Shown: positions 12,802 through 60,789 of the stretch, piece after piece
How the letters are laid out: each line of letters opens with the position of its first letter
Position numbering within the stretch: position 1 is the first letter of the stretch
Source: Candidatus Puniceispirillum sp.
GTDB taxonomy: Bacteria > Pseudomonadota > Alphaproteobacteria > Caedimonadales > UBA1908
Direction: 5' to 3'
DNA length: 64,000 nucleotides
Assembly (NCBI GenBank): GCA_013822015.1
Contig: PNJU01000002.1
Coordinates: forward strand, 192,500-256,499
Notes under the pieces: generated by a model
Databases searched by the model: none
Seen by the model: the letters and a program-made list of their open reading frames with translations, nothing else
Told to the model about the DNA's origin: nothing
Made by a program: the position numbers and the translations under genes

Positions 12802-12880
12802 CATAAGAGCATTGGGAGATTTTATGACACTCTCCTCAATATTTCTTCTGTCCACTCCCTCAAACAATAGGACGACCCAC

Positions 12881-14315: not shown

Positions 14316-14346
14316 TTCCAGTGTGTCAACACAGGAGAAGAGCACT

Positions 14347-16858: not shown

Positions 16859-17988
16859 GGTGCGTACCCCACAAGTGAGACCTGGACACCCTTGGGTGTA
16901 AGGTAATGATTCAGGCGCGTGAGTGTCTCCTCTTTGAGGGGCAGACTGATAATGAGCGTCCCACAAATGGTTCCGCCCAATGGGTCTAAGGTTCCCCCTA
17001 GAATGCTCACGTCCATCCCCTCGTCACGCACCAGCCCTGCAATCACAGGCTCCGCCGCCTGGGCGCCCGTAAAGAAGAGGCGTGCCACAAGTTCCTTGGC
17101 ACCCTGCGGTGTGTCTTGGAGGCGTTCCATCACAACACGGGGAACGCGCGCATTAAACAAATGTTGGACCAGGGATTTTGTCATCTCGCTTTTTGGCGCT
17201 ATGAAAACCTGGTCAACACGGCCCTGATCCACCACACGCCCTTGGTCCAACACCACAACATGGGTGCAAAGGTCACGCACGATGGCCATTTCATGGGTAA
17301 TCAGCACCATGGTCAGCCCTAGGGTGTGATTGAGATGAGCCAGCAACGCCAAAATGTCTTGGGTTGTTTCGGGGTCAAGGGCTGAGGTTGCCTCATCGCA
17401 CAAAAGCAGATGGGGGTCGCTGGCCAGAGCCCTTGCAATGGCCACACGCTGGGCTTGCCCGCCACTGAGCTCTCCAGGATAGGCGCCCTCTTTGTGGGAG
17501 AGCCCAACCAACTCAAGACAGCTCCTTGCCTTTTCCAGAGCCACGCGCGCACCCACACCAGCCATCTCCAAGGGAAGCATGACATTTTCGAGGCTAGTGC
17601 GCCGGCGCAGTAAGTGAAACTGTTGAAAAATCATGGCAATCCGGCGGCGCTGGTCTCTCAGCTCCACCGCTGACATTTCTTTGAGCGCACGCCCCTCAAA
17701 AGACACGGAGCCTTCGTCGGGGATCTCTAAGCCATTTAAACAGCGCAGAAGCGTGCTTTTGCCCGCACCGCTTTTCCCAACAATACCAAGTATTTCCCCA
17801 GCATTGACGTCAAAGGTGACGTGACGCAGCGCCCAAGCGTCCTGCGCATAACGTTTGGACACGCCGTTAAGACTTAGAATAGGAGAGTGAGGGGGGGGCT
17901 GTGTAATAAAAACAATGCTCCGCTTGTCTAAACTATTTTGTGTGCATCCGCTGAATAGGGCTCCACTCGCCTTCCGGCGGATGGGCAA
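16855..17988 (-). CDS. metN: Methionine ABC transporter ATP-binding protein (start uncertain)
   Basis: Walker A GKSGAGKST, signature LSGGQAQRVAIARAL, Walker B LLLCDEATSALD and a C-terminal NIL domain. Homology begins around ILSLNGVSKRY (about 17886). The ATG at 17988 would overlap the upstream cyclase gene by 56 nt. Confidence 0.88.
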   Translation of the reverse strand: MPIRRKASGALFSGCTQNSLDKRSIVFITQPPPHSPILSLNGVSKRYAQDAWALRHVTFDVNAGEILGIVGKSGAGKSTLLRCLNGLEIPDEGSVSFEGRALKEMSAVELRDQRRRIAMIFQQFHLLRRRTSLENVMLPLEMAGVGARVALEKARSCLELVGLSHKEGAYPGELSGGQAQRVAIARALASDPHLLLCDEATSALDPETTQDILALLAHLNHTLGLTMVLITHEMAIVRDLCTHVVVLDQGRVVDQGRVDQVFIAPKSEMTKSLVQHLFNARVPRVVMERLQDTPQGAKELVARLFFTGAQAAEPVIAGLVRDEGMDVSILGGTLDPLGGTICGTLIISLPLKEETLTRLNHYLTPKGVQVSLVGYAP

Positions 17989-26002: not shown

Positions 26003-26539
26003 TTAGTGCCGGTAAAGGATAAACTGAAAAAGCATAGGCTTGCCAACATCTACGTTGTTACGCACCGTGTACATAAATCCGTACCGTGAGGGTTTTTCAA
26101 AAGCTGTGCTGCGCACAACCTCCACATTTTCAAGTGCAAAGGGGTCCGCCGCCTCATAGGGCGCTATCAGGCTCGCAAAGGTCCGGCGCAAAACATCACT
26201 TTGGTTGCGATCAATGATGTACCAAGCGCACCCCACCTTATCAACGTAGTCCTGTTGCGCAGCAAAAAATGAGGCACCCGTGTGTTGATGACCTCTTTGC
26301 AAGAATGAGTAGGTATCATCGATCACTGGTGGGTGAGCGGCAGCTTTTTGGGCGTTCTTGAGACGATCAGCGCGCATAGAGATGCAAGTCTCCTCAAACC
26401 CATTGAAAAGCTTATCATATATTTCTTGACTGAAAACGCCTTGGGGCTTAGAAGGTAACCTCACCTCTTGAACGTCTACACTGGCAAGCAAACTCCCAGA
26501 CCCCAAAAACACAAAGACCAAACGCTTCAATAGATTCAT
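26003..26539 (-). CDS. Secreted hypothetical protein, tandem paralog family B member 1
   Basis: Leader MNLLKRLVFVFLGSGSLLAS. C-terminal core WYIIDRNQSDVLRRTF...VEVVRSTAFEKPSRYGFMYTVRNNVDVGKPMLFQFILY, shared with the next three ORFs. Confidence 0.7.
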   Translation of the reverse strand: MNLLKRLVFVFLGSGSLLASVDVQEVRLPSKPQGVFSQEIYDKLFNGFEETCISMRADRLKNAQKAAAHPPVIDDTYSFLQRGHQHTGASFFAAQQDYVDKVGCAWYIIDRNQSDVLRRTFASLIAPYEAADPFALENVEVVRSTAFEKPSRYGFMYTVRNNVDVGKPMLFQFILYRH

Positions 26540-26630
26540 TTCACTACACACTTTCATGCCAATTTGGCATGAACTAAGCATGGGCAGCGCGCTCAGTCAA
26601 GACGGTCTGTGAACCGCGGCGCTGTAAGGA

Positions 26631-27293
26631 TCACATGGTGAAGGGGTAAAGCATAACCTGAAAAAGCGCGCTTTTGCCAGTATCGTGATTGTTTCTGATG
26701 AGATAGCGCACACCGTAATAGGGGTAATCATGAACAGCTGTGCTGCGCACAACATCCACGCCTTCAATGACAAAAGCTGGCACGCCCTCACGCGGACTGA
26801 GCAAATTTTGATAAATGCGCTGCAACACGTTACTTTGGCTGCGTTCAATGACGTACCACAGCTCTCCCTTATCATCTTTGTAGGTTATGTCCTTTGCGTA
26901 GAAAGAGCCATTGCAAGGGGTTGCTTCATCGGGACGGGCTAGAAAGGAGGGAAGTAGACCAGAAACACCCGCGCCACTTAAGTGATCAAGACCAACGCCA
27001 TTGTCTGCCTGACCAGAGCGTGCAAAAAACGAAAGATCTTCTTGAAAGATGGGCGCACGATTGGCAAAAACACACACTTCTTCCGGGGCACGGAACACAT
27101 CGGTATGAATGTACTCACCTCCACAAAAAAGTGTGTCGTAAATTTTCTTCACAAAACCAGGAACGGTGAGGGCGCGCCGCATGACATCGGTTTCTTCCCC
27201 GTGTGTTGCTTCCTCAGGGGTGGTTGCCTGCACGCAGGTTGACACCAAAAGCCCACATATTGCATAGCTCAAATGTCTCATGGGGACACTCAC
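26631..27293 (-). CDS. Secreted hypothetical protein, family B member 2
   Basis: Leader MSVPMRHLSYAICGLLVSTCVQA. Core PSFLARPDE...WYVIERSQSNVLQRIY...VDVVRSTAVHDYPYYGVRYLIRNNHDTGKSALFQVMLYPF. Confidence 0.72.
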   Translation of the reverse strand: MSVPMRHLSYAICGLLVSTCVQATTPEEATHGEETDVMRRALTVPGFVKKIYDTLFCGGEYIHTDVFRAPEEVCVFANRAPIFQEDLSFFARSGQADNGVGLDHLSGAGVSGLLPSFLARPDEATPCNGSFYAKDITYKDDKGELWYVIERSQSNVLQRIYQNLLSPREGVPAFVIEGVDVVRSTAVHDYPYYGVRYLIRNNHDTGKSALFQVMLYPFTM

Positions 27294-27459
27294 ATTATGT
27301 CAGTACGACATGTCATTGGACCATGATAGAGATGAAGGCGTCAAGGGGGCGCCAAAAGAGTGTCGGGTTGCGTGCCAAGGCTAGGCCATGGAAACGCGGC
27401 CCGCCTTGGTGAGTAAACACCTCATGGGGAGCCGCGTGACCAACGGCATTAGGACTTCA

Positions 27460-28014
27460 TCAAGATCCGGCACGTTCAAAAGGGTAAAGCGTAAATTGGA
27501 AAAGCACGGGTTTTCCAACATCTTTATTATTTCTGATGGTGTAGAGCACGCCGTAGTGGGCGGGACTCTTGAAAGCCGTGCTACGTACAACCCTTACGCC
27601 TTCAAAAACAAAATCAGAAACGCCTTGGGGAGCACTCTGGAGGGTGCTAAAGACAGGTTGCAAAGTATCACTCTGGCTACGCTCGATGACATACCAAGAA
27701 TTTCCTTTTTGATCTTTGTAGGTATGCTCCTTCGTGTAAAAGGAACCAACAGCTTCATTTTCTTGGTCTGGGCGCGCAAGAAAAGAAGGGATGCTGTCAA
27801 ATGCTGGCGCGTCGATGTCACTGGGATTAAGAAACATGCCGTGACGCACGTCACCACCAAAAAAAAGCTTTTCATAAACTTTTGCTTTAAAGCCACTGGT
27901 GGTGGCAGCCGTCGATGAGCCTTCCATTTCTTCACCAGGCATGCTGGACATCGCACTTGTTGATGCCAAGATCCCACATATTACATAATTCCAAAGCCTC
28001 ATAATAACCCTCAT
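27460..28014 (-). CDS. Secreted hypothetical protein, family B member 3
   Basis: Leader MRVIMRLWNYVICGILASTSAMS. Core PSFLARPDQ...WYVIERSQSDTLQPVF...VRVVRSTAFKSPAHYGVLYTIRNNKDVGKPVLFQFTLYPF. Confidence 0.72.
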   Translation of the reverse strand: MRVIMRLWNYVICGILASTSAMSSMPGEEMEGSSTAATTSGFKAKVYEKLFFGGDVRHGMFLNPSDIDAPAFDSIPSFLARPDQENEAVGSFYTKEHTYKDQKGNSWYVIERSQSDTLQPVFSTLQSAPQGVSDFVFEGVRVVRSTAFKSPAHYGVLYTIRNNKDVGKPVLFQFTLYPFERAGS

Positions 28015-28059
28015 TTTTTGACAAAAGACACGTCTGTTTACTGTGAATCTTTATTGATG

Positions 28060-28587
28060 TCAAGGGGTTGTCCGCATAAGTGGTTCGTAGAGAGAATAAG
28101 TTCCCGTTGCCTTTAGGTCATGCCCGAATGTAACGCGCACTTCATACCCATAGGTCACCCTATCGCTGAGTGTCCTATGACAAATTGCACCAAGAAAAGT
28201 TGTGCGCACAGGGGTCTGCTCATCAATCACAAAAGACATTTTATGGTTTGCAATCACGTACCAGTTTCTCTCATCCTGAGGATGGCTCCACCAAGGATTT
28301 TCAACATCAACAGCGCATCCTCCCACAACCTCTTTTTTGATCAAAAAGGGCGGCAATCGGTCTTCTTCAAACTGCGGGGGCGGCACACGAGACTCAAAGA
28401 CTTGTGCCGCCTGAGGATTCAAAGGAATATCTCCATCGATCAAAAGCCCCGCATGCATATGCCGGTCGTAAGCAACGACCTTTCTTTGTGAATTTATCTC
28501 CAACGGGTGCGTGTCGGTGCTTGCCAGCGTTGAGCCTGACCCAGAAATAGCCACCACAATCCAACCTAATAGATTCATTTTTTTCAT
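28060..28587 (-). CDS. Secreted hypothetical protein, divergent family B member 4
   Basis: Leader MKKMNLLGWIVVAISGSGSTLAS, resembling that of member 1. It retains PPFL...NWYVI...YGYEVRVTF...YSLYEP spacing. It starts 38 nt after the clpB stop. Confidence 0.6.
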   Translation of the reverse strand: MKKMNLLGWIVVAISGSGSTLASTDTHPLEINSQRKVVAYDRHMHAGLLIDGDIPLNPQAAQVFESRVPPPQFEEDRLPPFLIKKEVVGGCAVDVENPWWSHPQDERNWYVIANHKMSFVIDEQTPVRTTFLGAICHRTLSDRVTYGYEVRVTFGHDLKATGTYSLYEPLMRTTP

Positions 28588-28624
28588 TTTTATTTTCTCG
28601 TTCTTATTTTTAATGATGAACCTA

Positions 28625-31180
28625 TCACGCAAAAGTTAACGTATCTTTCTCAAGCCCCACGCGGATTGTTGTACCTGCTTTGCCCTCAAGAATCAGCGTG
28701 GCAATGGGATTTTGCACGTAGCGCTGAATCACACGCTTAAGGGGACGGGCGCCATATGCCGGATCGTACCCTTGGCGGCCCAGCCACGCCTTTGCCTCGT
28801 CGGACACCTCAAGGGTGATTTGCTTGGCCTCCAGAAGCGCCCGCAGATGGGACAGCTGAATATCCACAATGCGTCCCATATCTTGGGCGCCCAAGCGGTT
28901 AAAGAGAAGTATCTCATCAATACGGTTGATGAACTCGGGACGGAAAGACGCGCGCACCAGTTCCATGACCTCGTCCTTATGCGCGCTTGCTTTCTCGCCC
29001 TCGGGAAGGGCCGCCAAAATCTGCCCCCCAATGTTGGAGGTCATGATGATGAGGGTATTGGTGAAGTTCACCGTATGCCCCTGCCCGTCCGTCAAGCGTC
29101 CATCGTCCAGCACCTGGAGAAGAACGTTAAAGACATCCGGGTGGGCTTTTTCGATTTCATCAAAGAGCACCACCTGATAGGGCCTGCGCCGCACGGCCTC
29201 CGTTAGCGCGCCGCCTTCTTCATAGCCCACATATCCGGGAGGGGCACCGATCAGGCGTGAAACGGTGTGCTTTTCCATATACTCAGACATATCCAGGCGC
29301 ACCATGGCGTGGGGGTCGTTAAATAAGAAGGTCGCCAGCGCTTTGGTCAGCTCGGTCTTACCCACACCCGTGGGGCCCAAAAATAGGAAGGATCCCATGG
29401 GACGGTTGGGATCTTGAAGTCCCGCGCGCGCGCGCCTGACGGCCTGGGAGATGGCCTCCACCGCCTCGTTTTGCCCCACAACCTGGGCTTCTAGGTGAGA
29501 TTCCATGGAAAGGAGCTTTTCGCGCTCGCCTTCCAGCATCTTATCCACGGGCACCCCAGTCCAGCGCGATACTATGGCCGCGACGTCTTGGTCCGTGACC
29601 TCTTCTTGAACCATACGGGCACTCGCCCCCTCTTGGCGGGCTTTTAGCTTGCCTTCAAGGTCCGGGATAATGCCGTAGAGCAGCTCCCCTGCCCTGGCCA
29701 AATTCCCCTCACGCTGGGCGATCTCAAGCTCACTTCTGGCTTGATCCAGCTGCTCTTTGAGCTTTTGCTCACCTTGGAGGGTCTCTTTTTCCGCCATCCA
29801 GGCCGTTGTCAGCTCCAGAGACTGGGCTTCCAACTCTTTCAGCTCCTCCTCGAGGCTCACCAAGCGTTTTTTGGCGTCCTGGTCCGTTTCTTTCTTAAGG
29901 GCCTCGCGCTCAATCTTGAGCTGAATAATGCGCCGGTCCAGCTCATCAATATCCTCGGGCTTTGAGTCCACCTCCATGCGCAGACGGCTGGCAGCTTCGT
30001 CCACCAGATCAATGGCTTTATCGGGCAAGAAGCGGTCCGTGATATAACGATCGGATAGGGTCGCCGCCGCCACAATGGCGCCGTCTGTGATGCGAATGCC
30101 GTGGTGAAGCTCATACTTTTCCTTAAGACCACGCAGGATCGAAATGGTATCCACGACCGTTGGCTCACTCACAAACACAGGCTGAAAGCGCCTGGCCAGA
30201 GCCGCGTCTTTCTCAATATACTTACGATACTCGTCCAGGGTTGTGGCGCCCACACAGTGGAGCTCGCCCCTAGCCAACGCGGGCTTAAGCATGTTGGAGG
30301 CGTCCATGGCACCGTCGGCTTTTCCCGCCCCCACAAGGGTATGCAATTCATCAATAAAAAGAATGACGTTTCCTGCGGCGTTCCCGATTTCTTGCAGGAC
30401 GGCTTTGAGTCTTTCCTCAAACTCACCGCGGTACTTTGCCCCCGCAATCAGGGCACCCAGGTCGAGCGCCATGAGCTGCGTCCCGCGCAAAGACTCAGGC
30501 ACATCCTCCTTGACGATACGCGCAGCAAGCCCCTCTAAGATGGCAGTTTTTCCCACACCGGGCTCACCGATGAGCACGGGATTGTTTTTGGTGCGCCTTG
30601 ACAGGACCTGGATGGTGCGGCGAATTTCCTCGTCACGCCCAATGACCGGATCAAGCTTGCCAGCTCTGGCCAGGGCCGTGAGATCACGGGCGTATTTTTC
30701 AAGGGCAGCAAAGGTCTCCTCGGCTGTGGCGCTGTCGGCTTTGCGCCCTTTGCGCATTTGGTCAATGGCTTGATCCAGCTTTTGGCTGGTCACGCCAACC
30801 GCCGACAAGAGCGGTCCACAACTTGTGTGGGTAAGGGCCTGCAAAAGGCGCTCGAGCGTCACGAAGCGGTCCCCACCTTGGGTGGCGAGGTTTTCGGCGC
30901 GCTCAAGCATTTTGTTTGTTTCTTGATCCAGGTAAACTTGCCCGGCGCCAGCACCTTCAACCTTGGGCTGCTTTTCAAGGGATTTTTGCACGGCATTCAA
31001 AAGCGAAAACATGTCCGCTTCAAGGATGCGCAAAAGCCCCTGCACAGGTCCCTCGCTCTCTTCTAAAAGCGCCAGCAGCACATGCTCACACGTCAAACGC
31101 TGGTGTGCCCGGCGCGCAGCCAAGGTTTGGGCGTTTTGCAACACCTCTTTTGTTTTTTCTGAATAGCGAGATAAATCCAT
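28625..31180 (-). CDS. clpB: Chaperone/disaggregase ClpB
   Basis: 851 aa with two AAA+ modules ([10 protein letters not shown]; [10 protein letters not shown]) and a middle coiled-coil domain. The sequence is ClpB-like over its full length. Confidence 0.97.
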
Positions 31181-41485: not shown

Positions 41486-41524
41486 GCACGGGGCTGCCAA
41501 CCGGGGCAGTCCCGTGCTATTTTC
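41486..41524. terminator. Bidirectional terminator between typA and a convergent small ORF
   Basis: GCACGGGGCTGCC aaccgg GGCAGTCCCGTGC: a 13-bp stem with one G:U pair, AAAA upstream and TATTTT downstream. Confidence 0.6.
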
Positions 41525-41825
41525 CGTCTTTACCAGTTTCACACACCTTCCCATTTTCGCCATCACTGCAAAGGGGCCCATCACCGTTCAAGAATGGATG
41601 GCGCTGACCCACGTGCCAAGGGGTTGGCGCAACGGGTGCCTTCTCCTCACGCTGGGGAGGTAGCGCCTTGGCTCTCTCTGATTCTTCCTGAGCAGGCGCG
41701 GCCCTAAAATACGCATCCTCCGCCGCCCCTTCACTCCAAGGTTTTGGGTCCGTATCGCCGCCTCCAGCTGCAAAGGAAACAGAGAAATGAAGAAAAAACA
41801 CAGAAAGAAATAAATATTTACCCAT
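41517..41825 (-). CDS. Small secreted hypothetical protein (102 aa)
   Basis: The ATG at 41825 gives MGKYLFLSVFFLHFSVSFAAGGG. The mature part is acidic and Pro-rich with two Cys near the C-terminus. Confidence 0.5.
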   Translation of the reverse strand: MGKYLFLSVFFLHFSVSFAAGGGDTDPKPWSEGAAEDAYFRAAPAQEESERAKALPPQREEKAPVAPTPWHVGQRHPFLNGDGPLCSDGENGKVCETGKDGK

Positions 41826-41883
41826 ATAATTACCCCATTTTTCTTTTATTTTATCATACAAACATTAATTTTTTATTTAAGGC

Positions 41884-41918
41884 AAAAAATCCCCTTGGAA
41901 GATAATTCCTCCAAGGGG
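41884..41918 (-). terminator. Rho-independent terminator of family C gene 1
   Basis: CCCCTTGGA ...10 nt... TCCAAGGGG. On the minus strand it is followed by ATTTTTT, and it lies 27 nt after the stop at 41945. Confidence 0.55.
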
Positions 41919-41944: not shown

Positions 41945-44116
41945 TTAGTTTGGAATTCTATCAAATTTCTTTTGAGCTAGGACAATTTGCCCTCTGTTCC
42001 CTGTTTTTTTTGTTGCGTCAAGTATCAACGCCGCCACCTGTTTCTCCTTAGAAGACGCGCCTGAATCAAGAATGATTTGAATCATCGTTTGTCGCTGCGC
42101 AATCTGCGCCCGTACTTGCGCACGGCGTCCAGCGTCCTGTTCTTGCAAGACAGTCTCTTGAAGGACTCTGACCTCAGCCTGCAGCCACCCAAGAGGCGTT
42201 GTCAGAGAGCTCCTCTCCACGCAAAGCGCCTCGGCCATCTGGTCAAGTTGTTCGTTAAGGCTGCGCACCCTGGCAGCGCCGTAAGATCCTGCACTAGCAA
42301 GCTCAATAAGCACCTGCGCGCCTGAAGACTCACCGACAGTCGGCGTGCGTGGCGCAGTCACTGCCACTGGTGCTGAAGAGATACTGACTCCTGATTGCTC
42401 CTCCAAAGAAAGTGGACTCACCAACTCTTGCATCACCTCAGCGCTAGCTGCTCCCAAACCTTGATTTTGCGTCGGAACAACCTCTTGAACAAGCGTCAGT
42501 GACGTGCGCACAGGCGCACTTGAAGCCAGAGACACTGCTGGCGCTTCGTCGACGAGCGCAGTTACAAATTCAAGTGTCGGGCAGTTGGAGGCGCCCATGC
42601 GACTTTCGTGCTCTGCGTCGCTTGGGTTGTAAGGGGTCTCTCTAACAGCGGGTGAGACCTCTTCAGCCGGCGTAGGCACAACAACCTGAGGGACACGCGC
42701 GCCTTCGATCTCTTGCAAACGCGCCTCAATAAGCGAGATTTCGTCGCGTGCATCTGGTGTTAAACCTGCCAGTCGCGCGCGCAGCAAATGCTCCTCACCT
42801 TGGGCAGAAAGGACGGCGCGCATGCGCAAATCACCGCGCTCTTCCTCAAGACGAGCGATCTCAGCGTGAAATGCATCTATGGCCCCTCGTGAAGCGGCAA
42901 TGTCCTGCTCCACCTGAGACAGCGTGCGCGGCGCTGGATCCGAGGAAGAAGAGGCGATCATGGTCAGTGGATAAAGGTCCGCACGTTGACGGACAAGGTC
43001 ACCGGCGCGCGCGGCGTCGCCTGTCCTCGTGGCGAGTACGAGCGCCGCATCAATGCGCCCAAGACTGGCTAAACGTGCCTCAAAAAGTCCTGCAAGCGCA
43101 GCGTCTCCGGCTGCGTTGGCTTCATCACGGGCCAGACGGATCCGCTCGTCCACAGTGGCACTTTCTTGCTGTTGACGCAATCTCAATGTCGTACGCTCAC
43201 CTTGAAGCCTTGCAAGATGTTCCTGCTCTTGGGCAAGGTTTCCACGCGCCCCTTCCAGAGATGCGAGAACGGTTTCCATGGTGCGCGCGGCCGGAGCTGT
43301 AGGGGTGGAGAACTCTGTTTCCAGTTCTGGCGAAAGTGCGGGCGTGAGAGCGCCTGGTGTGACACTTGAAACTGGCTGCTCTGCCATTATAGACGCCCAC
43401 GTCAAAACCGCGCGCAGACCACGCGCAAAGGGCTCGCTGGGCGTGTCAGAGCCAAACAGAGAAAGAGGCGAGATGCCAAGCATTGTCGCGGGGTCAAGGC
43501 TTCCATCCGCTCCCACCCCAATGCGCGCATTGTGCGCACCACTCAAAAAGACGGCGTACGCACGGTTTAAGCTACGTGTTTCCTGCGCTCCATTACGAAG
43601 CATATGAAGGACATCAATGGCTGAAACACGTGATTGCCCTCGTAAAACGCCACGCAAAGGACTATTGCGGGGCTCATCTGCTGACGGTGCATCTGACTGG
43701 CCCGCCATACGGGACGCCCAAGAGAAAAGACCATACACACCCCGTGCAAATGGCTCAGTTTCAGTGTTACCACCAAACAGAGTCATTGCTGCGGGGATGC
43801 CGTGCATAGTCGTAGGGTCAAGGGTTCCATCTTCCAAAAATACCACATTCCTATCGTGGGCAGCGCTCAAAAAGACACGGTAAGCGGGGTTCATGTGGCG
43901 TGTTTCCGGTGCTCCTGATTGAAGAAGGTTCAAGATTTCAACAGCCGATCTATCCTCAGGCACAGATACCTGTGCTGGGCTTGTCCAAGAGCCAAAGACG
44001 CCCCCTAAGGCTTCAGACGAGAGTGATGGCCATGGGGTATCAGTTGAGGAGCCATGGGCCGACACACTCACAAGGGCTGTCGCCAAAAGCATTGTTTTAA
44101 AAAGGTTATTGTGCAT
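41945..44116 (-). CDS. Large secreted repeat/coiled-coil protein, family C member 1 (723 aa)
   Basis: The ATG at 44116 (MHNNLFKTMLLATALVSVSAHG) is preceded by GGAGAGAG. It has two tandem ~90-aa modules (..RSAVEILNLLQSGAPETR..AY.VFLSAAH...DG.LDP......LFG......PFARG....L.WAS.MA), then a long Ala/Arg/Glu/Leu-rich predicted coiled coil and an S/A/V/P-rich segment. Confidence 0.75.
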   Translation of the reverse strand: MHNNLFKTMLLATALVSVSAHGSSTDTPWPSLSSEALGGVFGSWTSPAQVSVPEDRSAVEILNLLQSGAPETRHMNPAYRVFLSAAHDRNVVFLEDGTLDPTTMHGIPAAMTLFGGNTETEPFARGVYGLFSWASRMAGQSDAPSADEPRNSPLRGVLRGQSRVSAIDVLHMLRNGAQETRSLNRAYAVFLSGAHNARIGVGADGSLDPATMLGISPLSLFGSDTPSEPFARGLRAVLTWASIMAEQPVSSVTPGALTPALSPELETEFSTPTAPAARTMETVLASLEGARGNLAQEQEHLARLQGERTTLRLRQQQESATVDERIRLARDEANAAGDAALAGLFEARLASLGRIDAALVLATRTGDAARAGDLVRQRADLYPLTMIASSSSDPAPRTLSQVEQDIAASRGAIDAFHAEIARLEEERGDLRMRAVLSAQGEEHLLRARLAGLTPDARDEISLIEARLQEIEGARVPQVVVPTPAEEVSPAVRETPYNPSDAEHESRMGASNCPTLEFVTALVDEAPAVSLASSAPVRTSLTLVQEVVPTQNQGLGAASAEVMQELVSPLSLEEQSGVSISSAPVAVTAPRTPTVGESSGAQVLIELASAGSYGAARVRSLNEQLDQMAEALCVERSSLTTPLGWLQAEVRVLQETVLQEQDAGRRAQVRAQIAQRQTMIQIILDSGASSKEKQVAALILDATKKTGNRGQIVLAQKKFDRIPN

Positions 44117-44240
44117 TATTTCTCTCTCCAAGTGTTATAAACAGCAACTTAACGTCGACACCATTATAAGGCGCGCCATAAGCTGGCCTGACATATAGGA
44201 AGAAAAAAACACCCTGTCAACGAAACGGGAAAAATAAATT
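44073..44240. repeat. Dispersed direct repeat, copy 1 (leader plus 5'UTR/promoter of family C gene 1)
   Basis: agggctgtcgccaaa..cattgttttaaaaaggttattgtgcattattt.tctctccaagtgttataaaca...cttaacgtcgacacc...ggcgcgccataagctggcctgacatataggaagaaaaaaacaccctgtcaac recurs almost verbatim at 45583-45750. Confidence 0.85.
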
Positions 44241-44293
44241 TTTAGGTACTGCGCGTACGAAGGAAAACCTTTACGTGCTCTGCTTGCACGCAG

Positions 44294-44331
44294 CATAAGC
44301 GCCCTGAACAGACCTGAACAGGGCGCTTATG
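44294..44331 (-). terminator. Hairpin downstream of family C gene 2 (no U-tract)
   Basis: CATAAGCGCCCTG aacagacctgaa CAGGGCGCTTATG: a 13-bp perfect stem 12 nt after the stop at 44343. Confidence 0.4.
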
Positions 44332-44342
44332 TGTCAGTGGAA

Positions 44343-45626
44343 TTAGTTTGCTAGAGCGTGGGACATAAACGTGATGAGGTAGTTTTTGTATGCCTCGTCA
44401 ATCTTAACAGGGGTGTGTCTGTCCTCTATCATATCCTGCCAGTGGTGCCACGCATCAACCACCGCGTCCCGGGCTTCGGCCAGCACTGGTGGCGTAGGAC
44501 GCCTTCTAACAAATGCTGAAGCCTCACCGCTGGATTGCGCGCTGTCGGCGGCACTAGGCGTTGAGACCGCTGGTGCCCTGGTTGTCACCATAAGCGCTTC
44601 ACATTGAGAGCGAAGTGTCGCAAGGCTTGCCAGCGCATGATCTCGCTCAACCGTCCTCGCGGAGAGCGCATTTAGGGCGTCGTCTCGCTCAGCTGTGCGT
44701 GAGAAAAGCGCGCTTTGGGCATCGTCTCCCTCGGCTGTGCGTGATGAAAGAACAGGCGTAAGGGAATGTGATCCTTCCACCGCCAGGGGCAAATCAGAAG
44801 AAGAGCTCGGCGACACAGCAGACGAAGGGATCGCCAGATCCTCTGTTTCATGCTCAGGCGAGGACGATGTTGTGGCGGACAGAGGTGAGATAACGGGAGC
44901 AGGTTGTTCTGCTACAAATGAGGCACCCCATCTCAGGACGGCTAAGAGGCCATGGGCAAAGTGTTCATTGGGCGCGTCAAAACCAAAAAGGGAGATGGGT
45001 ACAAGACCTGATAGGCCCATGGGGTCAATATTACCATCGGCCGCAACTCCAATTCTTGCACCATGGGCGGCGCCAAGAAAGACAGCGTATGCACGGTTCA
45101 AGTTCCTTGTTTCATCTGATCCGTCACGCAGTAGGTTAAGGGTTTCGATGGCAGATCTTTGTGGGGAGGCACTCCTAAAACCTTGAAACCCAGATGTGTT
45201 GCCTTCGTTTTGTGAATCGGCTCCTTCTAAAGATGCCATACGAGCCGCCCACGAAAAGAGCCCGAGCATACCACGGGCAAAGACCTCACTCGGATTGGTT
45301 GAACCAAACAGGCTTTGAACGGCAGGAAGACCACGTGTCGTTACGGGATCAAGGGTGCCGTTTTCTAAAAAGGAGATCTGACGCCGGTGCGCGGCACTCA
45401 AAAAGGCCGCATAGCCCGTATTGAAGACGCGTGTTTGTGGGTCACCTGACTCCAACAGATTGAGCGTCTCGATGGCGGAACGCTCTTGACTGGCTGTGGT
45501 AACAGCTGGAGACGTGTGATAGCCTTGCATAGCTTCGGACGGGATATCCGGAAGGGGTGAAGCGTTAACGCCCACACTTACCAGGGCTGTCGCCAAAGAC
45601 ATTGTTTTAAAAAGGTTATTGTGCAT
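44343..45626 (-). CDS. Secreted repeat protein, family C member 2 (427 aa)
   Basis: The ATG at 45626 gives MHNNLFKTMSLATALVSVGVNA. It has the same two ~90-aa modules as member 1 (QERSAIETLNLLESGDPQTR...; PQRSAIETLNLLRDGSDETR...), followed by degenerate 14-aa repeats (..RTAERDDALNAL..). Confidence 0.75.
   Translation of the reverse strand: MHNNLFKTMSLATALVSVGVNASPLPDIPSEAMQGYHTSPAVTTASQERSAIETLNLLESGDPQTRVFNTGYAAFLSAAHRRQISFLENGTLDPVTTRGLPAVQSLFGSTNPSEVFARGMLGLFSWAARMASLEGADSQNEGNTSGFQGFRSASPQRSAIETLNLLRDGSDETRNLNRAYAVFLGAAHGARIGVAADGNIDPMGLSGLVPISLFGFDAPNEHFAHGLLAVLRWGASFVAEQPAPVISPLSATTSSSPEHETEDLAIPSSAVSPSSSSDLPLAVEGSHSLTPVLSSRTAEGDDAQSALFSRTAERDDALNALSARTVERDHALASLATLRSQCEALMVTTRAPAVSTPSAADSAQSSGEASAFVRRRPTPPVLAEARDAVVDAWHHWQDMIEDRHTPVKIDEAYKNYLITFMSHALAN
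44630..44755 (-). repeat. Degenerate ~42-bp (14-aa) tandem repeats in family C gene 2
   Basis: Three units encode RTAEGDDAQSALFS / RTAERDDALNALSA / RTVERDHALASLAT. The tctcgctca / tctcgctca / tctccctcg landmarks are spaced 42 nt apart (44641, 44683, 44725). Confidence 0.6.
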
Positions 45627-45750
45627 TATTTTTCTCTCCAAGTGTTATAAACAACAGCTTAACGTCGACACCTTTAAAGGGCGCGCCATAAGCTGGCCTG
45701 ACATATAGGAAGAAAAAAACACCCTGTCAACAAAAGTGGAAAAATATATT
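45583..45750. repeat. Dispersed direct repeat, copy 2 (leader plus 5'UTR/promoter of family C gene 2)
   Basis: Near-identical to 44073-44240; I saw only a handful of substitutions or indels by eye. Confidence 0.85.
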
Positions 45751-45894
45751 TAAAGTGGAAACAAGGCCCAAAGATTGGGCCATCGATGGGGAAAAGGCCG
45801 CCCACTGTCAGCCTATAACGAGAACAATTTCATTTCGTGCGCAGGAAACGATGCAAGCGACGCGTGTCGCAATCGAAATTACAAGGGAGCTATA

Positions 45895-45929
45895 AAACAA
45901 AACCCCCTTGCGTTTTGCGCGCAAGGGGG
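45895..45929 (-). terminator. Rho-independent terminator of family D gene 1
   Basis: CCCCCTTGCG ttttgcg CGCAAGGGGG. On the minus strand it is followed by TTTTGTTTT, and it lies 28 nt after the stop at 45957. Confidence 0.55.
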
Positions 45930-45956
45930 CTGCATCATAGCTAAGATTAAAAGCTA

Positions 45957-47156
45957 TTATGACGCAATGCTGTCAAAGGCAGCCTTTGCTGTGAGCACTG
46001 CACGCCTTGGCGCACCACTGCTAACAAGTGCTTGCCAATTGCGATACGCATCTTGCTTTTCTGGACTTGCGGCCAGCAACTCAGAGGGAAGCGCAATAGC
46101 AGGTGCAGAAGAGCTGCTGGATGACGCTGACGCTGTGGTTGTTGTGCGTGTCGTCGTTGTCACAACCGGGCGAGCCAACGTTGCCAAAAGGTTAGGCAGA
46201 TCTGCGGCTAACTCTGTGCTTGAAGCATAATCAGCGTGACCAGCTGCGTTCCTTAAAACGTTTACAGCATCAAGAATCAAACGAACTTCGTCAGATTGCT
46301 TAACGTGAGCTGCTTGTAGTCTACCAAGTTGCCTTGCAGCATCATCACGCTCAGCTGTCATGTCATCAAGAGCTCGTTGTGTTGGACGTGCATCACGCTC
46401 AGCTGTCATGTCATCAAGAGCTTGTTGTGTTGGACGTGCATCACGCTCAGCTGTCATGTCATCAAGAGCTTGTTGTGTTGGACGTGCATCACGCTCAGCT
46501 GTCATGTCATCAAGAGCTCGTTGTGTTGGACGTGCATCACGCTCAGCTGTCATGTCATCAAGAGCTTGTTGTGTTGGACGTGCGAGCAACAGTTGGTAAG
46601 CAGCTGATGTTGGATCAATGCGCGCATCACGCTCAGCTGTCATGTCATCAAGAGCTTCTTGTGTTGGACGTGCGGCAAGTTCCGCTGTCAAAGATGTAAT
46701 CCTATCCTCTGCACGGACATTCTCCACGAACAGACCCAGAACAACCTTGTTGATTTCGTCGGTCATGTCAACATCTGGCTCGGTAGCTTTCACATTTGGA
46801 ACCAAGTGCCCTGCCACGTTAAGAGAAAGAACCGTCTTGGCCACTGGAGGAGCAAGGGGATCTGCGTTATCAAACACATTAACTACGCCTGCGCCGCCGG
46901 TGCGATCAACTGTCACTTCCAGAGGAGCTTGAACCTTCCTCAACAAAGCTGCGTATGCGTCTTGTACACCATCTGTATATTCCTCAGCACCTGTAATGTC
47001 TGTGAGGATTTGCTGTGCAGCGCCTGGGTCTAGCGCATAAGCTGTTTTAGTTCCATTCCAAAGGTCTGCCAAATCTTGATCGTGTGCAGTTGCGAAAAGA
47101 TTGCCGCTGACAAGGGCTGTGGCCACGAGGACGGCCTTCATAAATTTATTTTGCAT
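45957..47156 (-). CDS. Secreted repeat protein, family D member 1 (399 aa) with 16-aa tandem repeats
   Basis: Leader MQNKFMKAVLVATALVSGNLFATA. Central repeats (RPTQxALDDMTAERDA) x5 plus 1. The C-terminal part includes poly-Thr and poly-Ser runs (TTTTRTTTTASASSSSSS). Confidence 0.75.
   Translation of the reverse strand: MQNKFMKAVLVATALVSGNLFATAHDQDLADLWNGTKTAYALDPGAAQQILTDITGAEEYTDGVQDAYAALLRKVQAPLEVTVDRTGGAGVVNVFDNADPLAPPVAKTVLSLNVAGHLVPNVKATEPDVDMTDEINKVVLGLFVENVRAEDRITSLTAELAARPTQEALDDMTAERDARIDPTSAAYQLLLARPTQQALDDMTAERDARPTQRALDDMTAERDARPTQQALDDMTAERDARPTQQALDDMTAERDARPTQRALDDMTAERDDAARQLGRLQAAHVKQSDEVRLILDAVNVLRNAAGHADYASSTELAADLPNLLATLARPVVTTTTRTTTTASASSSSSSAPAIALPSELLAASPEKQDAYRNWQALVSSGAPRRAVLTAKAAFDSIAS
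46344..46673 (-). repeat. 48-bp in-frame tandem repeat (5 contiguous units 46344-46583, plus a 6th at 46626-46673)
   Basis: The unit atcacgctcagctgtcatgtcatcaagagct[c/t]gttgtgttggacgtgc starts at 46344, 46392, 46440, 46488 and 46536. The units differ only at the one c/t position (Arg vs Gln). The sixth unit follows a 42-nt degenerate spacer. Confidence 0.92.
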
Positions 47157-47469
47157 TCAAAATTCTCCTTCATTGCAAAATCGCAGGTCTGTTGGAATAT
47201 CCCATTCATCACTGCTTAGCTTGTCATATAGGATCTCAAACGCCAATCTGTCAACATATATTTTTAAGAAGAGACCATAAACGTATTAAACACATAACGT
47301 TTCTTTGTGTTTTGTTTATTGTGTCTGCCTCATTGGACAAAAATATTTCATTTTCAAAAATGAACAGTATGACGATCCGTCCCAGCGGGATGTTTGATCC
47401 CCGGTGACTCAGCGGGCCCGTGCCGCGGTAAAAGCACATACACAATCGCTTACAAAGAGCATCTGACAG

Positions 47470-47540
47470 TGGAGCATCAAAAGAAAGAGTTAGACCTAGT
47501 ACAGGCAAGCGACCAGGTTGTGGGGGGATACATCTTCTGC
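47470..47540 (+). pseudogene. Relic of the 5' end of the downstream APC permease gene
   Basis: caaaagaaagagttagacctagtacaggcaagcg (encoding QKKELDLVQAS) matches caaaagaaagagttaggccttgtgcaggcaagtg (QKKELGLVQAS) at 48625-48658. The similarity decays on both sides, and no long ORF with permease TM segments follows. Confidence 0.45.
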
Positions 47541-47677
47541 GCTGGGCGCCGACTTGTGCAGCCCGCACTCGCGCACCAAGCAGCAAGCGTATGGCGTAGT
47601 GAGCGCTGGAATGGATACCTGGAGAGCGGCCAGTGCGTTTCTCCAGGCGATCCTACTTGTGATGGGCCTGCCCGAAG

Positions 47678-48331
47678 CTAGTTGCGCTCTGCTTCAAGTG
47701 CCAGAAAGCGTGCGTGATTGGTTTTAGCGACCTCTTCTCTTTCAGAAAGCTGCTGGCGTACCAGGATGAGTTCGGCCTGTAGGGCTGCCAATTCTAAAGG
47801 CGTAATATTGGCCCGCGCATCTCGCTGTGCAACAACTGTGTCACGTTCGTCTGTCAAGGCAACAATCTGAGCAACAAGGGTATTGATAGTTTCATTCCCA
47901 TGAACATTGTCCATAAACAAACCCAACACGGCCTTGTTCATTTCGTCGGTCATGTCATCATTTATCGTGGGATTTTACTAATTTGGAACCAAGTGCTGTT
48001 CCACCGCAAGAGACAGAAGGATCGTGAGCGGATACCAGTCAGTGTCTTGAGTTGCAACAGCCACGCCCGCGCCCAACGAGCGATCAACTGTCACAGGAAA
48101 GCCGTGAACGCGTGTCAACAAAGCGGCGTATGCGTCTTGTACACCATCTGTATATTCCTCAGCACTTGTAATGTCTGTGAGGATTTGCTTTGCAGCGCCT
48201 GGGGCTAGCTCATAAGCTGTTTTAGCTCCGCCCCAAAGCTCTGCGAAGTCTTGTTCGTGCGTGCTGGCGAAAAGGTTTCCGCTAACAAGGGCTGTCGCCA
48301 CGAGAACGGCCCTCATAAACTTACATTGCAT
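47678..48331 (-). pseudogene. Family D member 2, interrupted by in-frame TAG-TAA
   Basis: The N-terminal part (MQCKFMRAVLVATALVSGNLFAST...HLVPN) and the downstream part (..NPTINDDMTDEMNKAVLGLFMDNV...) are in the same frame. They are separated by TAG TAA at 47972-47977, where member 1 has GTG AAA (HLVPNVKATEPDVDMTDE). A ~100-nt block in the 5' region is near-identical to member 1. Confidence 0.65.
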
Positions 48332-48552
48332 CTTTTGTTTCTCCGACGTTGTAAAAATCTAGAGGCCGGGCGTGCCTGCCCAGACCGTGGGTCTTTAGCA
48401 CACAGGCACATGTTCACTGTCAAATTAAGAATTAACATGAAAATATACACGAGGTTTTACAGGATATATTATATAAGAACAACATGATCTCTATCATCAT
48501 TTTTTCCATCTGTCTGGCAAACGCTTACACTTGGGTAGAGCTTTTATCATAG

Positions 48553-49935
48553 GTGACAGGGGGCGCGGGTGCGGCTATAAAGGCTTCATGGGAAACGAAT
48601 GAGAAGATTGCCCCCGTGGAGCGACAAAAGAAAGAGTTAGGCCTTGTGCAGGCAAGTGCCCTGGTGGTGGGCAACATGGTGGGGGCCGGCGTCTTTTTAC
48701 TGCCCACAACCATTGCCGTCTTTGGGTCAGTTGGCCTTTTGGGGTGGGGTCTGACGACCCTGGGCGCCATTTTCCTAAGCCTTGTTTTTGCCCGCCTTTC
48801 AAAGAGATACCCTCAAACGGGCGGGCCCTATGTTTACGCCAGGGCCGCCTTTGGGGATTTTGTGGGATTCCAGGTGGGATGGAGTTATTGGATCTCTATC
48901 TGGGTCAGCAATAGCGCGGTCACCATTGCGCTAGTCAGCTTCCTGTCCGCCCTTTTTCCCGTTCTTGATAGCCACCCCCTTTATAGCCTGGGCACCGCCC
49001 TCTTTTTCGTGTGGGGGTTGACGTTTGTGAACTGTGTGAGCCTGCGCACCGTGGGCGATATCCAGGTCCTGACAACGCTTTTAAAGATCCTGCCCCTCAT
49101 TGCGCTGTGCATCGTTGGCTTTTTGGAGGTTGAGGCGGCGAACTTTACGCCCTTCCTGCGTGAGAACACAACCTTTCTTCAAGGGCTTTCCGGCGCGGCG
49201 GCCCTCACGCTTTTCTCCTTCATGGGCCTTGAGTCCGCAACGGTCCCGGCCGAGCGCATCAAGGACCCCGAGCGCACCATCCCCTTGGCCACCATCCTTG
49301 GCACGTGTTTGACCGCCATCCTTTACATTGGATCAGCCGCAGCCGTCATCGGCATTTTGGGTGTGGAGGCAACGGCAGCGGACCCGGCCGCCTTTGCCAC
49401 CGCCAGTGGAAAGGCCCTGGGGCCCTGGGCCCTGCCCCTGGTGGCCATCACCGCCGCCATTTCTTCCTTCGGGGGCCTCAATGGCTGGATTCTCCTCCAA
49501 GGGCAAATCGCCATGGCAACGGCCAATGACGGCCTTTTCCCTCAGTTCTTTGCAAAGATGTCTTCAAAGGGTCTTCCCGTTGTGGGGCTTCTGATCTCCG
49601 CCACCTTTGTGTCCGTGCTTTTATACCTGAACTATGAGACGGGCCTTGCTCAGCAACTGCGTTTTTTGGTGACCCTCACCACCTTTGCGGTGCTCCTACC
49701 TTACCTCTATGCCAGCGCGGCGGAGCTGTATTTTCATCTGAAAGAGCGCCACTGTACGCCTGAAAAGTATCCCGTGCGCCACCTTGTTGTCACGGTGCTG
49801 GCCCTCACCTACGCTTTTACAACCTTTGGGGGCGCGGGCGAGGAAATTGTGTACTTCGGGACATTCCTGATTTTTAGCGGCATTCCCGTTTACGTTTGGA
49901 TGAAAACCCGTCCGTCTACGTGCGATGAGAAATAA
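48553..49935 (+). CDS. APC-superfamily amino acid/polyamine antiporter (start uncertain; possibly the GTG at VERQKK)
   Basis: About 12 TM segments. LGLVQASALVVGNMVGAGVFLLPTTIAVFG resembles the basic amino acid/polyamine antiporter (AdiC/PotE/ArcD-type) N-terminal signature. Confidence 0.85.
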   Translation: MTGGAGAAIKASWETNEKIAPVERQKKELGLVQASALVVGNMVGAGVFLLPTTIAVFGSVGLLGWGLTTLGAIFLSLVFARLSKRYPQTGGPYVYARAAFGDFVGFQVGWSYWISIWVSNSAVTIALVSFLSALFPVLDSHPLYSLGTALFFVWGLTFVNCVSLRTVGDIQVLTTLLKILPLIALCIVGFLEVEAANFTPFLRENTTFLQGLSGAAALTLFSFMGLESATVPAERIKDPERTIPLATILGTCLTAILYIGSAAAVIGILGVEATAADPAAFATASGKALGPWALPLVAITAAISSFGGLNGWILLQGQIAMATANDGLFPQFFAKMSSKGLPVVGLLISATFVSVLLYLNYETGLAQQLRFLVTLTTFAVLLPYLYASAAELYFHLKERHCTPEKYPVRHLVVTVLALTYAFTTFGGAGEEIVYFGTFLIFSGIPVYVWMKTRPSTCDEK

Positions 49936-59274: not shown

Positions 59275-60789
59275 GTGTCAAAACGCGCCATCGCTTTCTT
59301 ACGTACTGTGTGCACTTTGAAAAAAAATCTCCTTTGCCTTTGCGCGCTTTTCCTGACCTCGTCACATTTATTTGCAAGTACGCACATGGACAAGGAAAAG
59401 TCTGCGTCCCCCGTTTCCCCACCACAGGAGAGCGCAACCCATGCTTATGCAAAGATTCTCATTAACGTCGCAAAGTGGTCTGACGCTGACCTTGCTGCTG
59501 TACAAGAAAAGACACTCCAAAGCTTGCCCTCAAATGCGTCCGTTGTGGATCTACTCCTACACATTAATCAAAGCGCACGAGCGGCTGGCATCCCCTTGGA
59601 GCGCGCGGTTTCCCTTGAAAAGCTCTGCAGCCACCTCTTTAATACCCAGGCGCCAAAAACGCTCTCCATCTCTTCGCACATCAATGCAAATAAAACAGAA
59701 CTTGACCCCGGATACGGCTTTCACACAATTGATCCCCTCTCCCAAGCCTACTTAGAAGAGCTCCACGGGCGCGCTAAAACCAACACCCGCCTGATTCAAA
59801 CGGCAGATGTCGGTGCAGGATTTGGCTGGATGGCAAGTCTGGCTCTGATTTCAGGTTCTTCTTTTGCAGGCCCTCCAAAAAACAACACCCCCCTTCGCGG
59901 CGTACGTGTGACCGCCTTTGAAAACCACCCGCCTCTTTTAGGCAAAGATAGCCAAGGCCCTGTCATGCAGTTTGTCAAACAGGCCAAAGAGTTTTGCGAA
60001 ACATTTGCCAAGTCAGGCGCGCGCGCATCAGACTGCAGCAGTGTAGTGGGCGCCGACGCTGTCACTGCCTTGGGTGAGGCTAAGCGCACTAATTCCTTTG
60101 ACGCAATCCACTTGGGACGTATGATTCACTGCCTAAGTCCTGTGCGCGCAGACCTTCTGACAAAAAATCTCATGAACGCCGCCGCACCTGGTGGACGCGT
60201 TTTTGCAAGTGTGCACACAGCACTTTCGTTTCCTGATATCGAAGAAACGCTCAAAGTCATGGCGCCCAAGCGTGGTTGCAAAACCAAGCATCCTCACTTA
60301 CCTGCTTTTTCTACGCCCTTTGAGATTTATGAAGCGCAGCTTAAGGCGGGCGCCGACTTTCCCGGATGGATGGTCCTTGGGATGGCACAGCAGTACACGC
60401 CCAAGGGAGAGATCCTGCTGTCTTCTTTCGTGTCGGCGCAATCCCTGGATGAATCCAAAGAAAATTTGTCGCCGGTTTTGCGCCAGCCGGGGGCCTATAC
60501 CTCCAAGCAAAGCGCCCTCACTGTGCACAAAGGTGGCTTACAGACAGAGCTGAGCTATCGAAGCTATCAAATCTATGACAGCGTAAGCTTCTCAGACCTC
60601 TTTAAACGCGCTGGGTTCGATATAGAAGACGTCTTCTATACGGATATCTACAACCGGCGCATAGAGATCTCTTCCATTGGCAGAGACGGCCGCTTTACAA
60701 GTGCAAGGGACACGGACTTGGCCTCAACCGTGTGTGTCATCGCGCGCAAGGCTCAAGACCTAGACGAGCCGCACAGCAACACCCATTAG
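59275..60789 (+). CDS. Secreted class I SAM-dependent methyltransferase-like protein (504 aa)
   Basis: Hydrophobic leader LLCLCALFLTSSHLFAS. MTase motif I is IQTADVGAGFGWMA, with an acidic post-I residue in RVTAFENH. Motif II-like is FDAIHLGRMIHCLSP and motif III-like is AAPGGRVFASV. Confidence 0.6.
   Translation: MSKRAIAFLRTVCTLKKNLLCLCALFLTSSHLFASTHMDKEKSASPVSPPQESATHAYAKILINVAKWSDADLAAVQEKTLQSLPSNASVVDLLLHINQSARAAGIPLERAVSLEKLCSHLFNTQAPKTLSISSHINANKTELDPGYGFHTIDPLSQAYLEELHGRAKTNTRLIQTADVGAGFGWMASLALISGSSFAGPPKNNTPLRGVRVTAFENHPPLLGKDSQGPVMQFVKQAKEFCETFAKSGARASDCSSVVGADAVTALGEAKRTNSFDAIHLGRMIHCLSPVRADLLTKNLMNAAAPGGRVFASVHTALSFPDIEETLKVMAPKRGCKTKHPHLPAFSTPFEIYEAQLKAGADFPGWMVLGMAQQYTPKGEILLSSFVSAQSLDESKENLSPVLRQPGAYTSKQSALTVHKGGLQTELSYRSYQIYDSVSFSDLFKRAGFDIEDVFYTDIYNRRIEISSIGRDGRFTSARDTDLASTVCVIARKAQDLDEPHSNTH

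Follow-up and report, generated by a model that had tools for sequence, protein, structure and literature searches.

What are the two large exported proteins encoded side by side at positions 41945–45626, on the minus strand, of the stretch of DNA considered here, and what is the module that each of them carries twice? The window, that is, the whole stretch of 64,000 nucleotides (nt) that was analysed, is filed at NCBI under 'Candidatus Puniceispirillum sp.', and an earlier note on it, whose coordinates are exact, had picked out these two proteins (here p1 and p2) and the module, which it did not recognise. It represents a new domain family, an orphan of very narrow distribution: in the searches described below, which covered about 15 billion public proteins, it was met nowhere outside this family, and no described domain in Pfam, NCBIfam, PHROG or the PDB, or found with Foldseek, matched it. 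The modules are discussed first, followed by the evidence that the genes are real, their history, their tails and the role that the proteins may have.

A duplicated module outside the described domain families

The two coding sequences (CDS) and the four copies of the module are the following:

41945..44116, minus strand: p1 (member 1), CDS of 723 amino acids plus stop; the same as P0002 and as hypothetical protein C0514_02450
44343..45626, minus strand: p2 (member 2), CDS of 427 amino acids plus stop; the same as P0001 and as hypothetical protein C0514_02455
43682..43960, minus strand: p1 module 1, residues 53–145; the part of the gene with the lowest ratio of nonsynonymous to synonymous substitution rates (dN/dS)
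43361..43639, minus strand: p1 module 2, residues 160–252
45213..45491, minus strand: p2 module 1, residues 46–138; the copy used for the AlphaFold model
44889..45167, minus strand: p2 module 2, residues 154–246

The module is about 90 (about 93) residues long and stands in two tandem copies in each protein, four in the window, as had been claimed; this was borne out by a hidden Markov model (HMM) built from the copies. When every six-frame translation of the window was scanned with hmmsearch --max (all filters off), the profile returned only the four copies, with independent E-values (i-E) of 9.8e-49, 8.7e-47, 1.1e-43 and 2.2e-42, and the next match had an E-value of 1.2. The internal repeat is highly significant in BLASTP, module 1 against module 2 giving an E-value of 1.7e-24 within p2 and 1.3e-29 within p1 (48–51% identity over about 83 residues), and p1 and p2 are 55% identical over their first approximately 270 residues (BLAST, E 2e-90). 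In an alignment of eight module copies, four from the window and four from two orthologues, 25 columns are invariant and reproduce the pattern that had been read from the letters, in the form A..L..L..G...TR..N..Y..FL..AH...G..DP...G...LFG...E.FA.G...WA. Identity is 58% between module 1 copies and 64% between module 2 copies, compared with 40–51% between module 1 and module 2; therefore, the duplication of the module probably preceded that of the gene.

It was found that neither p1 nor p2 belongs to a Pfam or NCBIfam family at E<=1; isolated modules searched against Pfam at E<=10 gave only a chance match to Transposase_21, in two of the eight copies; PHROGs gave no match for p1 or p2; and a profile search of PDB sequences gave chance matches only, with E-values of 0.1–1. 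In a word-indexed search of 5.8 billion clusters, the p1 and p2 queries each returned the same four proteins, namely, P0001 and P0002 from the window, P0003 from the metagenome-assembled genome (MAG) GCA_020161545.1 'CAED1' and an ENA contig, and P0004 from a Logan assembly, so that the family is present in three assemblies. Scans of genome and metagenome contigs yielded CAED1 as the only further source of family members. When 1.84 billion representatives were searched exhaustively with the profile (hmmsearch), three repeat proteins (VTPSVGANGTLSPNT..., IPAAISLFKGKREFE...) came up beside the family itself, at E-values of about 1e-4; these three matches were rejected as spurious because many weak partial matches sum up in them. 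A calcium-binding loop was likewise considered. An EF-hand loop has 12 residues with the pattern DxDxDGxIxxxE and is acidic at positions 1, 3, 5 and 12; the candidate segment of the module, [FV][LGA][EA][DN]G[TSN][LI]DPxxx, is not acidic at positions 1, 3 and 12, no Pfam EF-hand match was obtained, and the candidate was dropped.

The structure of a single module (p2 module 1, with the eight-copy alignment) was modelled with AlphaFold2, a check that the earlier note had proposed. The model has a predicted local distance difference test (pLDDT) score of 83.3 and a predicted template modelling (pTM) score of 0.70, with the five models at pLDDT 79–83, and is a confident three-helix model for which Foldseek found no match in the PDB. 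Helices are modelled at residues 6–15, 18–35 and 69–92, the last being a long one; the helix at 18–35 bears the conserved TR..N..Y..FL..AH stripe, a beta-bridged turn lies at DGxLDP, and residues 48–68 form an irregular conserved loop with LFG. The module is predicted from this model to be a three-helix domain with the order helix, helix, beta turn, conserved loop, long helix.

It is improbable that the module is a very divergent three-helix domain of the PG_binding_1 kind by which the proteins are tethered to the wall. The resemblance on which this proposal draws is one seen by eye: 'A[IV]ExLNLLxSG', 'AYxVFL' and 'DGxLDPxT' in the module recall 'VxxLQxxLxxxG', 'AVxxFQ' and 'DGxxGxxT', and the module is predicted to be helical. 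However, hhalign against three PDB-derived PG_binding_1 domains gave a probability of 0.2% and an E-value of 0.35 on an unrelated segment, the isolated modules had no PG_binding_1 match in Pfam even at E<=10, neither the PDB profile search nor Foldseek against the PDB brought up a PG_binding_1 structure, and the first DGxFG motif is missing from the module.

Starts, export signals and transcription signals

The full open reading frames (ORFs) on the minus strand extend over 41945–44131 for p1 and 44343–45641 for p2, and the true starts lie at ATG codons internal to them, at 44116 and 45626, respectively; these starts are chosen because a conserved GGAGAG ribosome-binding site (RBS) stands 7 nt 5' of the ATG and because the NCBI gene models begin there. 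The RBS and the gene models thereby confirm the common beginning MHNNLFKTM.LATALVSV that had been given for both proteins, the shared N-terminus of p1 and p2 being MHNNLFKTM[SL]LATALVSV. The signal peptides are the following:

44051..44116, minus strand: p1 signal peptide, residues 1 to about 20–22, MHNNLFKTMLLATALVSVSA, followed by HG
45561..45626, minus strand: p2 signal peptide, MHNNLFKTMSLATALVSVGVNA, followed by S

By eye, the signal peptides have K7 in the n-region, an 11-residue hydrophobic core (TMLLATALVSV) and small residues at −3/−1; the cleavage sites fall between VSA and H in p1 and between VNA and S in p2, a lipobox cysteine is absent, and the pattern is kept in the orthologues. 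These features, as read by eye, mark both p1 and p2 as Sec-exported proteins of the signal-peptidase-I type. The two had been called large secreted proteins, and the part of this that stands is the inner-membrane export signal, with its n-, h- and c-regions and cleavage sites, whereas release from the cell is presumed only.

Transcription signals were found on the 5' and 3' sides of both genes:

44192..44220, minus strand: p1 promoter-like element, TTGACA-17 nt-TATATG
45702..45730, minus strand: p2 promoter-like element, a 29-mer identical to the p1 element
41891..41918, minus strand: terminator-like hairpin with a T-run, 27 nt past the p1 stop
44298..44327, minus strand: GC-rich hairpin with no T-run, 16 nt past the p2 stop

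Both hexamers and the GGAGAG site are invariant in the four aligned upstream regions, while the 17-nt spacer is the same in p1 and p2 but different in the orthologues. The promoter-like element was missed by a consensus scan because the last base of its −10 hexamer is not T.

Selection on p1 and its parts

The dN/dS values were obtained for window genes against orthologues at loci L001 and L003, at a synonymous divergence (dS) of about 0.3–0.45. The whole p1 gene has a dN/dS of 0.30–0.32; within it, module 1 has 0.09–0.11, module 2 has 0.23, the helical region that follows has about 0.3 (0.29–0.32), the low-complexity linker has 0.37 together with many indels, and the mature N-terminus, residues 23–55, has 0.72–0.75. 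For comparison, the neighbouring BipA has a dN/dS of 0.04–0.05 at similar dS, and p3, the gene next to p2, has 0.62. Judged by these ratios, the modules are the constrained core of p1, and the remainder of the protein is fast-changing. In the linker of the L001 orthologue, for instance, there are 43 gap columns at 55% identity, and this orthologue is 69 residues shorter because of deletions in the linker.

The dN/dS values, together with the predicted promoters and terminators, establish p1 and p2 as real, separately transcribed paralogous genes. It could be objected that both are annotated as hypothetical only, that the opposite strand also has long ORFs and that a truly decayed paralogue of p3 lies nearby, all of which would suit ORFs that arose by chance in GC-rich DNA, or pseudogenes in decay. 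Such an explanation is hardly credible, as dN/dS is 0.09–0.32 across regions at the dS given above, the ORFs run uninterrupted in three assemblies, and the promoter hexamers, RBS and terminators are conserved, by which it is effectively refuted.

Organism and history of the gene pair

It has been reported that CAED1 is a MAG from an enhanced biological phosphorus removal (EBPR) bioreactor, 1.88 Mb in size with a guanine-cytosine (GC) content of 52.8%, which GTDB assigns to Alphaproteobacteria; o__Caedimonadales; f__UBA1908 (PMC9723799). The CAED1 locus has the order amino-acid permease, p3 orthologue, p1 orthologue, a 104-residue gene, BipA, lipoate ligase and Na/Ala symporter; it is syntenic with the window, with BipA identities of 98% (protein) and 90% (DNA). 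The window lies on a 268,666-bp contig of an NCBI MAG. Because of this synteny and the 98% identity of BipA, the window organism, an uncultured alphaproteobacterium, is taken to be a close relative of CAED1 and to belong with UBA1908, and, on the same grounds, the NCBI label is probably wrong. Caedimonadales is a GTDB split of Holosporales. The literature counts it among endosymbiotic lineages and among intracellular parasites, and describes Holosporales sensu lato as living in obligate association with eukaryotes, mostly protists (PMC11909080; bioRxiv 10.64898/2026.06.21.733656; PMC12644861).

At the CAED1 and ENA loci there is no p2, and the p3 orthologue stands immediately before that of p1. 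The sequence just 5' of the p2 promoter matches the upstream sequence of the CAED1 p1 orthologue, which is the leftover expected from a tandem duplication of promoter plus gene. A history may be proposed in which duplication of the module came before that of the gene, with p1 being the conserved orthologue and p2 an extra, divergent copy. The 5' ends of the two genes contain a nearly identical tract:

44063..44241, minus strand: p1 side of the 92%-identical tract, 179 base pairs (bp), containing the promoter, the 5' untranslated region and the first approximately 54 coding nt
45573..45751, minus strand: p2 side of the same tract, 179 bp

Outside the 179-bp tract, the DNA of p1 and p2 is about 66% identical. 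Over the 125 bp upstream, p1 and p2 have an identity of 91.9% to each other and of 69–71% to the orthologous upstream region of CAED1; because the upstream regions of the paralogues are more alike than either is to the orthologue, these identities suggest gene conversion limited to the 5' end as the simplest reading. If gene conversion maintains the likeness of the 5' regions, p1 and p2 are probably co-regulated.

The narrow distribution of the family and the presence or absence of p2 between relatives might also be expected of cargo of a recently acquired phage, plasmid or other mobile element. This origin is very unlikely: there is no PHROG match, tblastn against 50,697 phage and 72,556 plasmid records gave no match, synteny from BipA to the amino-acid permease is conserved on the chromosome, the GC content (0.51–0.57) is inside the range of the window, and no integrase or transposase is found nearby.

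Tails and repeats

The mature proteins consist of a variable N-terminus of about 30 residues, the duplicated-module head and a fast-changing tail, and the tails of p1 and p2 differ, as had been said of them. The tail of p1 runs from an A/R/E/L helical region through an S/A/V/P linker of variable length to a conserved C-terminus; that of p2 runs from an S/T/P linker through short 14-residue repeats to a C-terminus unlike that of p1. Their delimited parts are the following:

42557..43246, minus strand: p1 A/R/E/L-rich region, probably helical by composition and heptad scan, residues 291–520
42242..42556, minus strand: p1 S/A/V/P-rich low-complexity linker, residues 521–625, of different length among the orthologues
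41948..42241, minus strand: p1 conserved C-terminal region, residues 626–723, ending in ...GQIVLAQKKFDRIPN
44665..44749, minus strand: p2 14-residue (42-bp) 'RTAERD' repeats, two clear copies and one degenerate copy

Residues 291–520 of p1 contain 17% A, 12% R, 11% L and 10% E, so that the earlier description of about 250 residues as A/R/E/L-rich holds for composition; heptads, on the other hand, exceed the 99th percentile of shuffles only at 276–307 and 397–426 (about 30 residues each) and nowhere in p2, by a crude home-made scan, which bears out the heptad-like character only in part. The S/A/V/P composition is upheld for residues 521–625, with 15% S, 14% A, 13% V, 11% L, 9% E and 7% P. A second internal repeat within the helical region of p1 was also sought; a match of 15 residues only was obtained (E 0.04), and the repeat is not established. 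The TAERD-type repeats of 14 residues reported for p2 do exist, but in only two to three imperfect copies: Tandem Repeats Finder gives a 42-bp unit in 2.0 copies with 83% matches at 44665–44749, and the units at the protein level are SRTAEGDDAQSALF, SRTAERDDALNALS and ARTVERDHALASLA, the third being degenerate.

The strong 'TAERD' repeat array of this locus belongs instead to the neighbouring gene p3, the member of family D, which encodes a 399-residue protein with a signal peptide:

45957..47156, minus strand: p3
46343..46583, within p3: five tandem 48-bp units (16 residues, ARPTQQALDDMTAERD) with 98% matches
45931..45901, minus strand: p3 terminator, 3' of p3

The p3 orthologues (L001:1191-2249 and L002:2-619) have another repeat unit, and the number of repeats appears to differ in two assemblies of the same species, of which L002 ends short at the 5' side. 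p3 resembles p1 and p2 in its signal peptide (MQNKFMKAVLVATALVS compared with MHNNLFKTMLLATALVS) and in having a folded N-terminal part, repeats, an S/T-rich linker and a short conserved C-terminus; it differs in its N-terminal domain, for which homology to the module was rejected by hhalign (probability 0.15%). Composition-corrected BLAST finds the similarity of the signal peptides alone.

At the C-terminal side, the last approximately 36 residues of p1 are 39% identical to those of p3, a statistically weak likeness (hhalign E 0.047; shuffle p 0.002–0.04); the C-terminus of p2 and p3 have 'DA[YW]xxWQ' in common, and the repeats of p2 and p3 have 'ALxxxTAERD' in common, both of which are statistically insecure. 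A sorting tail common to the proteins, or recombination among the neighbouring genes, could account for these likenesses of p1, p2 and p3. The tail of p2 might be a chimera with p3, but the uncorrected BLAST E-value of 2e-7 that pointed to this vanishes under composition-based statistics.

Beyond p3, at 47160–48550, the window has a decayed tandem segmental duplication where CAED1 has a single copy. It includes a frameshifted copy of p3 (47978–48331 plus 47678–47953), 76% identical in DNA over 441 bp to 46717–47156, and, beside it, a 56-bp remnant of the 5' end of the permease gene (47469–47524), 84% identical to 48616–48671.

Possible location and function

Our tentative reading, held with a little less than even confidence, is that p1 and p2 act at the cell envelope or the host interface after Sec export. 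The tandem-module head would be the binding part of the proteins, and the tail would be a spacer or an oligomerising stalk. This reading is adopted because the proteins have an exported, lineage-restricted and modular profile and belong to an order of endosymbionts; its context is supportive, in that other Pfam-less paralogue families with signal peptides lie at 8.4–15.3 kb and 26.0–28.6 kb, in addition to p3 and its decayed copy, and the window further holds a CAP-domain protein with motifs like ubiquitin-interacting motifs and an RNase III with a signal peptide.

Several points weigh against it. The searches brought up no homologue from which a function could be read; a Sec signal takes the proteins to the periplasm only, and no outer-membrane secretion route, anchor or beta-barrel is seen in p1, p2 or the window. 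The host association is drawn at the level of the order, through a related MAG from a bioreactor and not from a host, and the signal peptides are assigned by eye. In addition, the AlphaFold model of two modules is weak, with a pLDDT of 66 and three of five models below 45, and the conservation within the module may have purely structural reasons. An autotransporter is recognised by its C-terminal beta-barrel translocator, usually with a final aromatic residue; as regards type V secretion, no Pfam autotransporter domain is found in p1 or p2, and their C-termini (...FDRIPN and ...SHALAN) are hydrophilic and helical, unlike such a translocator.

That p1 and p2 are ordinary lineage-specific envelope proteins, with a structural or scaffolding task in the periplasm or outer membrane and no role towards a host, is the main rival reading, which we regard as somewhat less likely. 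It accords with a Sec signal that by itself predicts the periplasm, with the lack of secretion-system genes or outer-membrane anchors in p1, p2 or the window, with the purifying selection on the modules and with the by-eye likeness of 'DGxLDPxT' to the end of PG_binding_1, which hints at wall binding, although this likeness fails in hhalign (probability 0.2%) and in Pfam. Housekeeping envelope proteins, however, are normally conserved far beyond one genus, and this family is found in three assemblies only; moreover, dN/dS is about seven times the BipA value, indels abound in the tails, and close relatives differ in whether they have one of the copies.

Action at the envelope or host interface can also be put in a stronger form, which is unlikely as a whole: the module would be a new fold or domain that serves as a host-binding head in a small clade of protist endosymbionts (Caedimonadales UBA1908), and the locus would be a diversification cassette. 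In such a cassette, a promoter and signal-peptide unit homogenised by gene conversion would drive the paralogues, and the tails would be reshuffled by repeat turnover and by recombination with the family-D gene, giving variable surface or secreted proteins under pressure from the host.

Caedimonadales/UBA1908 is uncultured, and its biology has been deduced from genomes alone. If the host-interface reading is true, p1 and p2 would count among the earliest candidates for host-interaction factors in this group, and the module would in addition be a new domain family for the databases. The locus may serve as a compact case in which duplication of a module is followed by duplication of a gene and by homogenisation of the promoter and signal peptide, accompanied by tail replacement and repeat turnover. 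Lineage-specific families of secreted paralogues are to be expected in obligate symbionts, and the case has no bearing on a long-standing question.

Other genes of the window

The window is unusually rich in lineage-specific exported proteins. Just past the p1 terminator, 41517–41861 (minus strand) encodes a small protein of about 104–114 residues with no family match; in relatives it has 72% identity and a dN/dS of 0.18, and its N-terminal hydrophobic leader is swapped. Two families of paralogues have signal peptides and no Pfam match, namely, the 'WYRPTPEEL...GFEPxHLGAALR' family, with four genes at 8395–9303, 9436–10200, 10245–11282 and 14287–15300 (plus strand), and the 'WYVIERSQSxVL' family, with four tandem genes at 26003–28632 (minus strand) encoding about 190–220 residues each. 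Similarly, 59275–60789 (plus strand) encodes a Pfam-less protein of 504 residues with a signal-peptide-like N-terminus.

Meanwhile, some neighbours have recognisable domains. The protein of 12704–13969 (plus strand) has a CAP/SCP domain at its C-terminus (Pfam E 1.5e-17), and its N-terminus looks like a signal peptide or an anchor; before the CAP domain there are, by eye, three to four motifs like the ubiquitin-interacting motifs (UIM) of eukaryotes, DADFLLALRLCEE, EADLELALRLYEEE and DEDYLLAMRLFEEE. The protein of 6308–8077 (plus strand) has RNase III and double-stranded RNA-binding domains (Pfam E 1e-10 and 3e-7) after a signal-peptide-like N-terminus, and an A/S/T/P/V-rich tail of about 200 residues; such a build is unusual for RNase III, and the protein could be an exported nuclease. 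A membrane protein of 736 residues encoded at 17933–20143 (minus strand) resembles, by eye, a sensor-linked adenylate or guanylate cyclase.

Comparison with known systems

Among described domains, PG_binding_1 (PF01471) is like the module in being a small, helical, extracytoplasmic domain and in its DGxxGxxT motif, to which DGxLDPxT may be compared; it differs in that the module is about 30 residues longer and has a conserved 'LFG...ExFAxG...W' loop and helix without counterpart.

The tandem repeat proteins (TRPs) of Anaplasmataceae, for example, those of Ehrlichia, belong to obligate intracellular alphaproteobacteria; they are lineage-specific, evolve fast and combine short tandem repeats with acidic or Ser-rich low-complexity regions. 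They are secreted by the type I route and have no Sec signal peptide. Their repeat number varies between strains, as it appears to do here in p3; p1 and p2, unlike TRPs, have Sec signals and a folded, duplicated helical head. To our knowledge, there is no homology between TRPs and p1 or p2.

It has been reported that the 89-kDa invasion-tip protein and the 63-kDa protein PRP1 of Holospora obtusa are stored in the periplasm and, on infection, become exposed or are released to the host (PMC9866348; PMC11909080). Homology of these two proteins to p1 and p2 was not found, the searches having given the four family members only, provided that the collections include Holospora proteins. A D5_N DNA-binding domain is found in PRP1 and actin-binding motifs in the 89-kDa protein, whereas p1 and p2 have neither; all of them, on the other hand, come from Holosporales in the broad sense, have a novel, lineage-specific sequence and carry a putative signal peptide, which makes the Holospora proteins the nearest analogy for p1 and p2.

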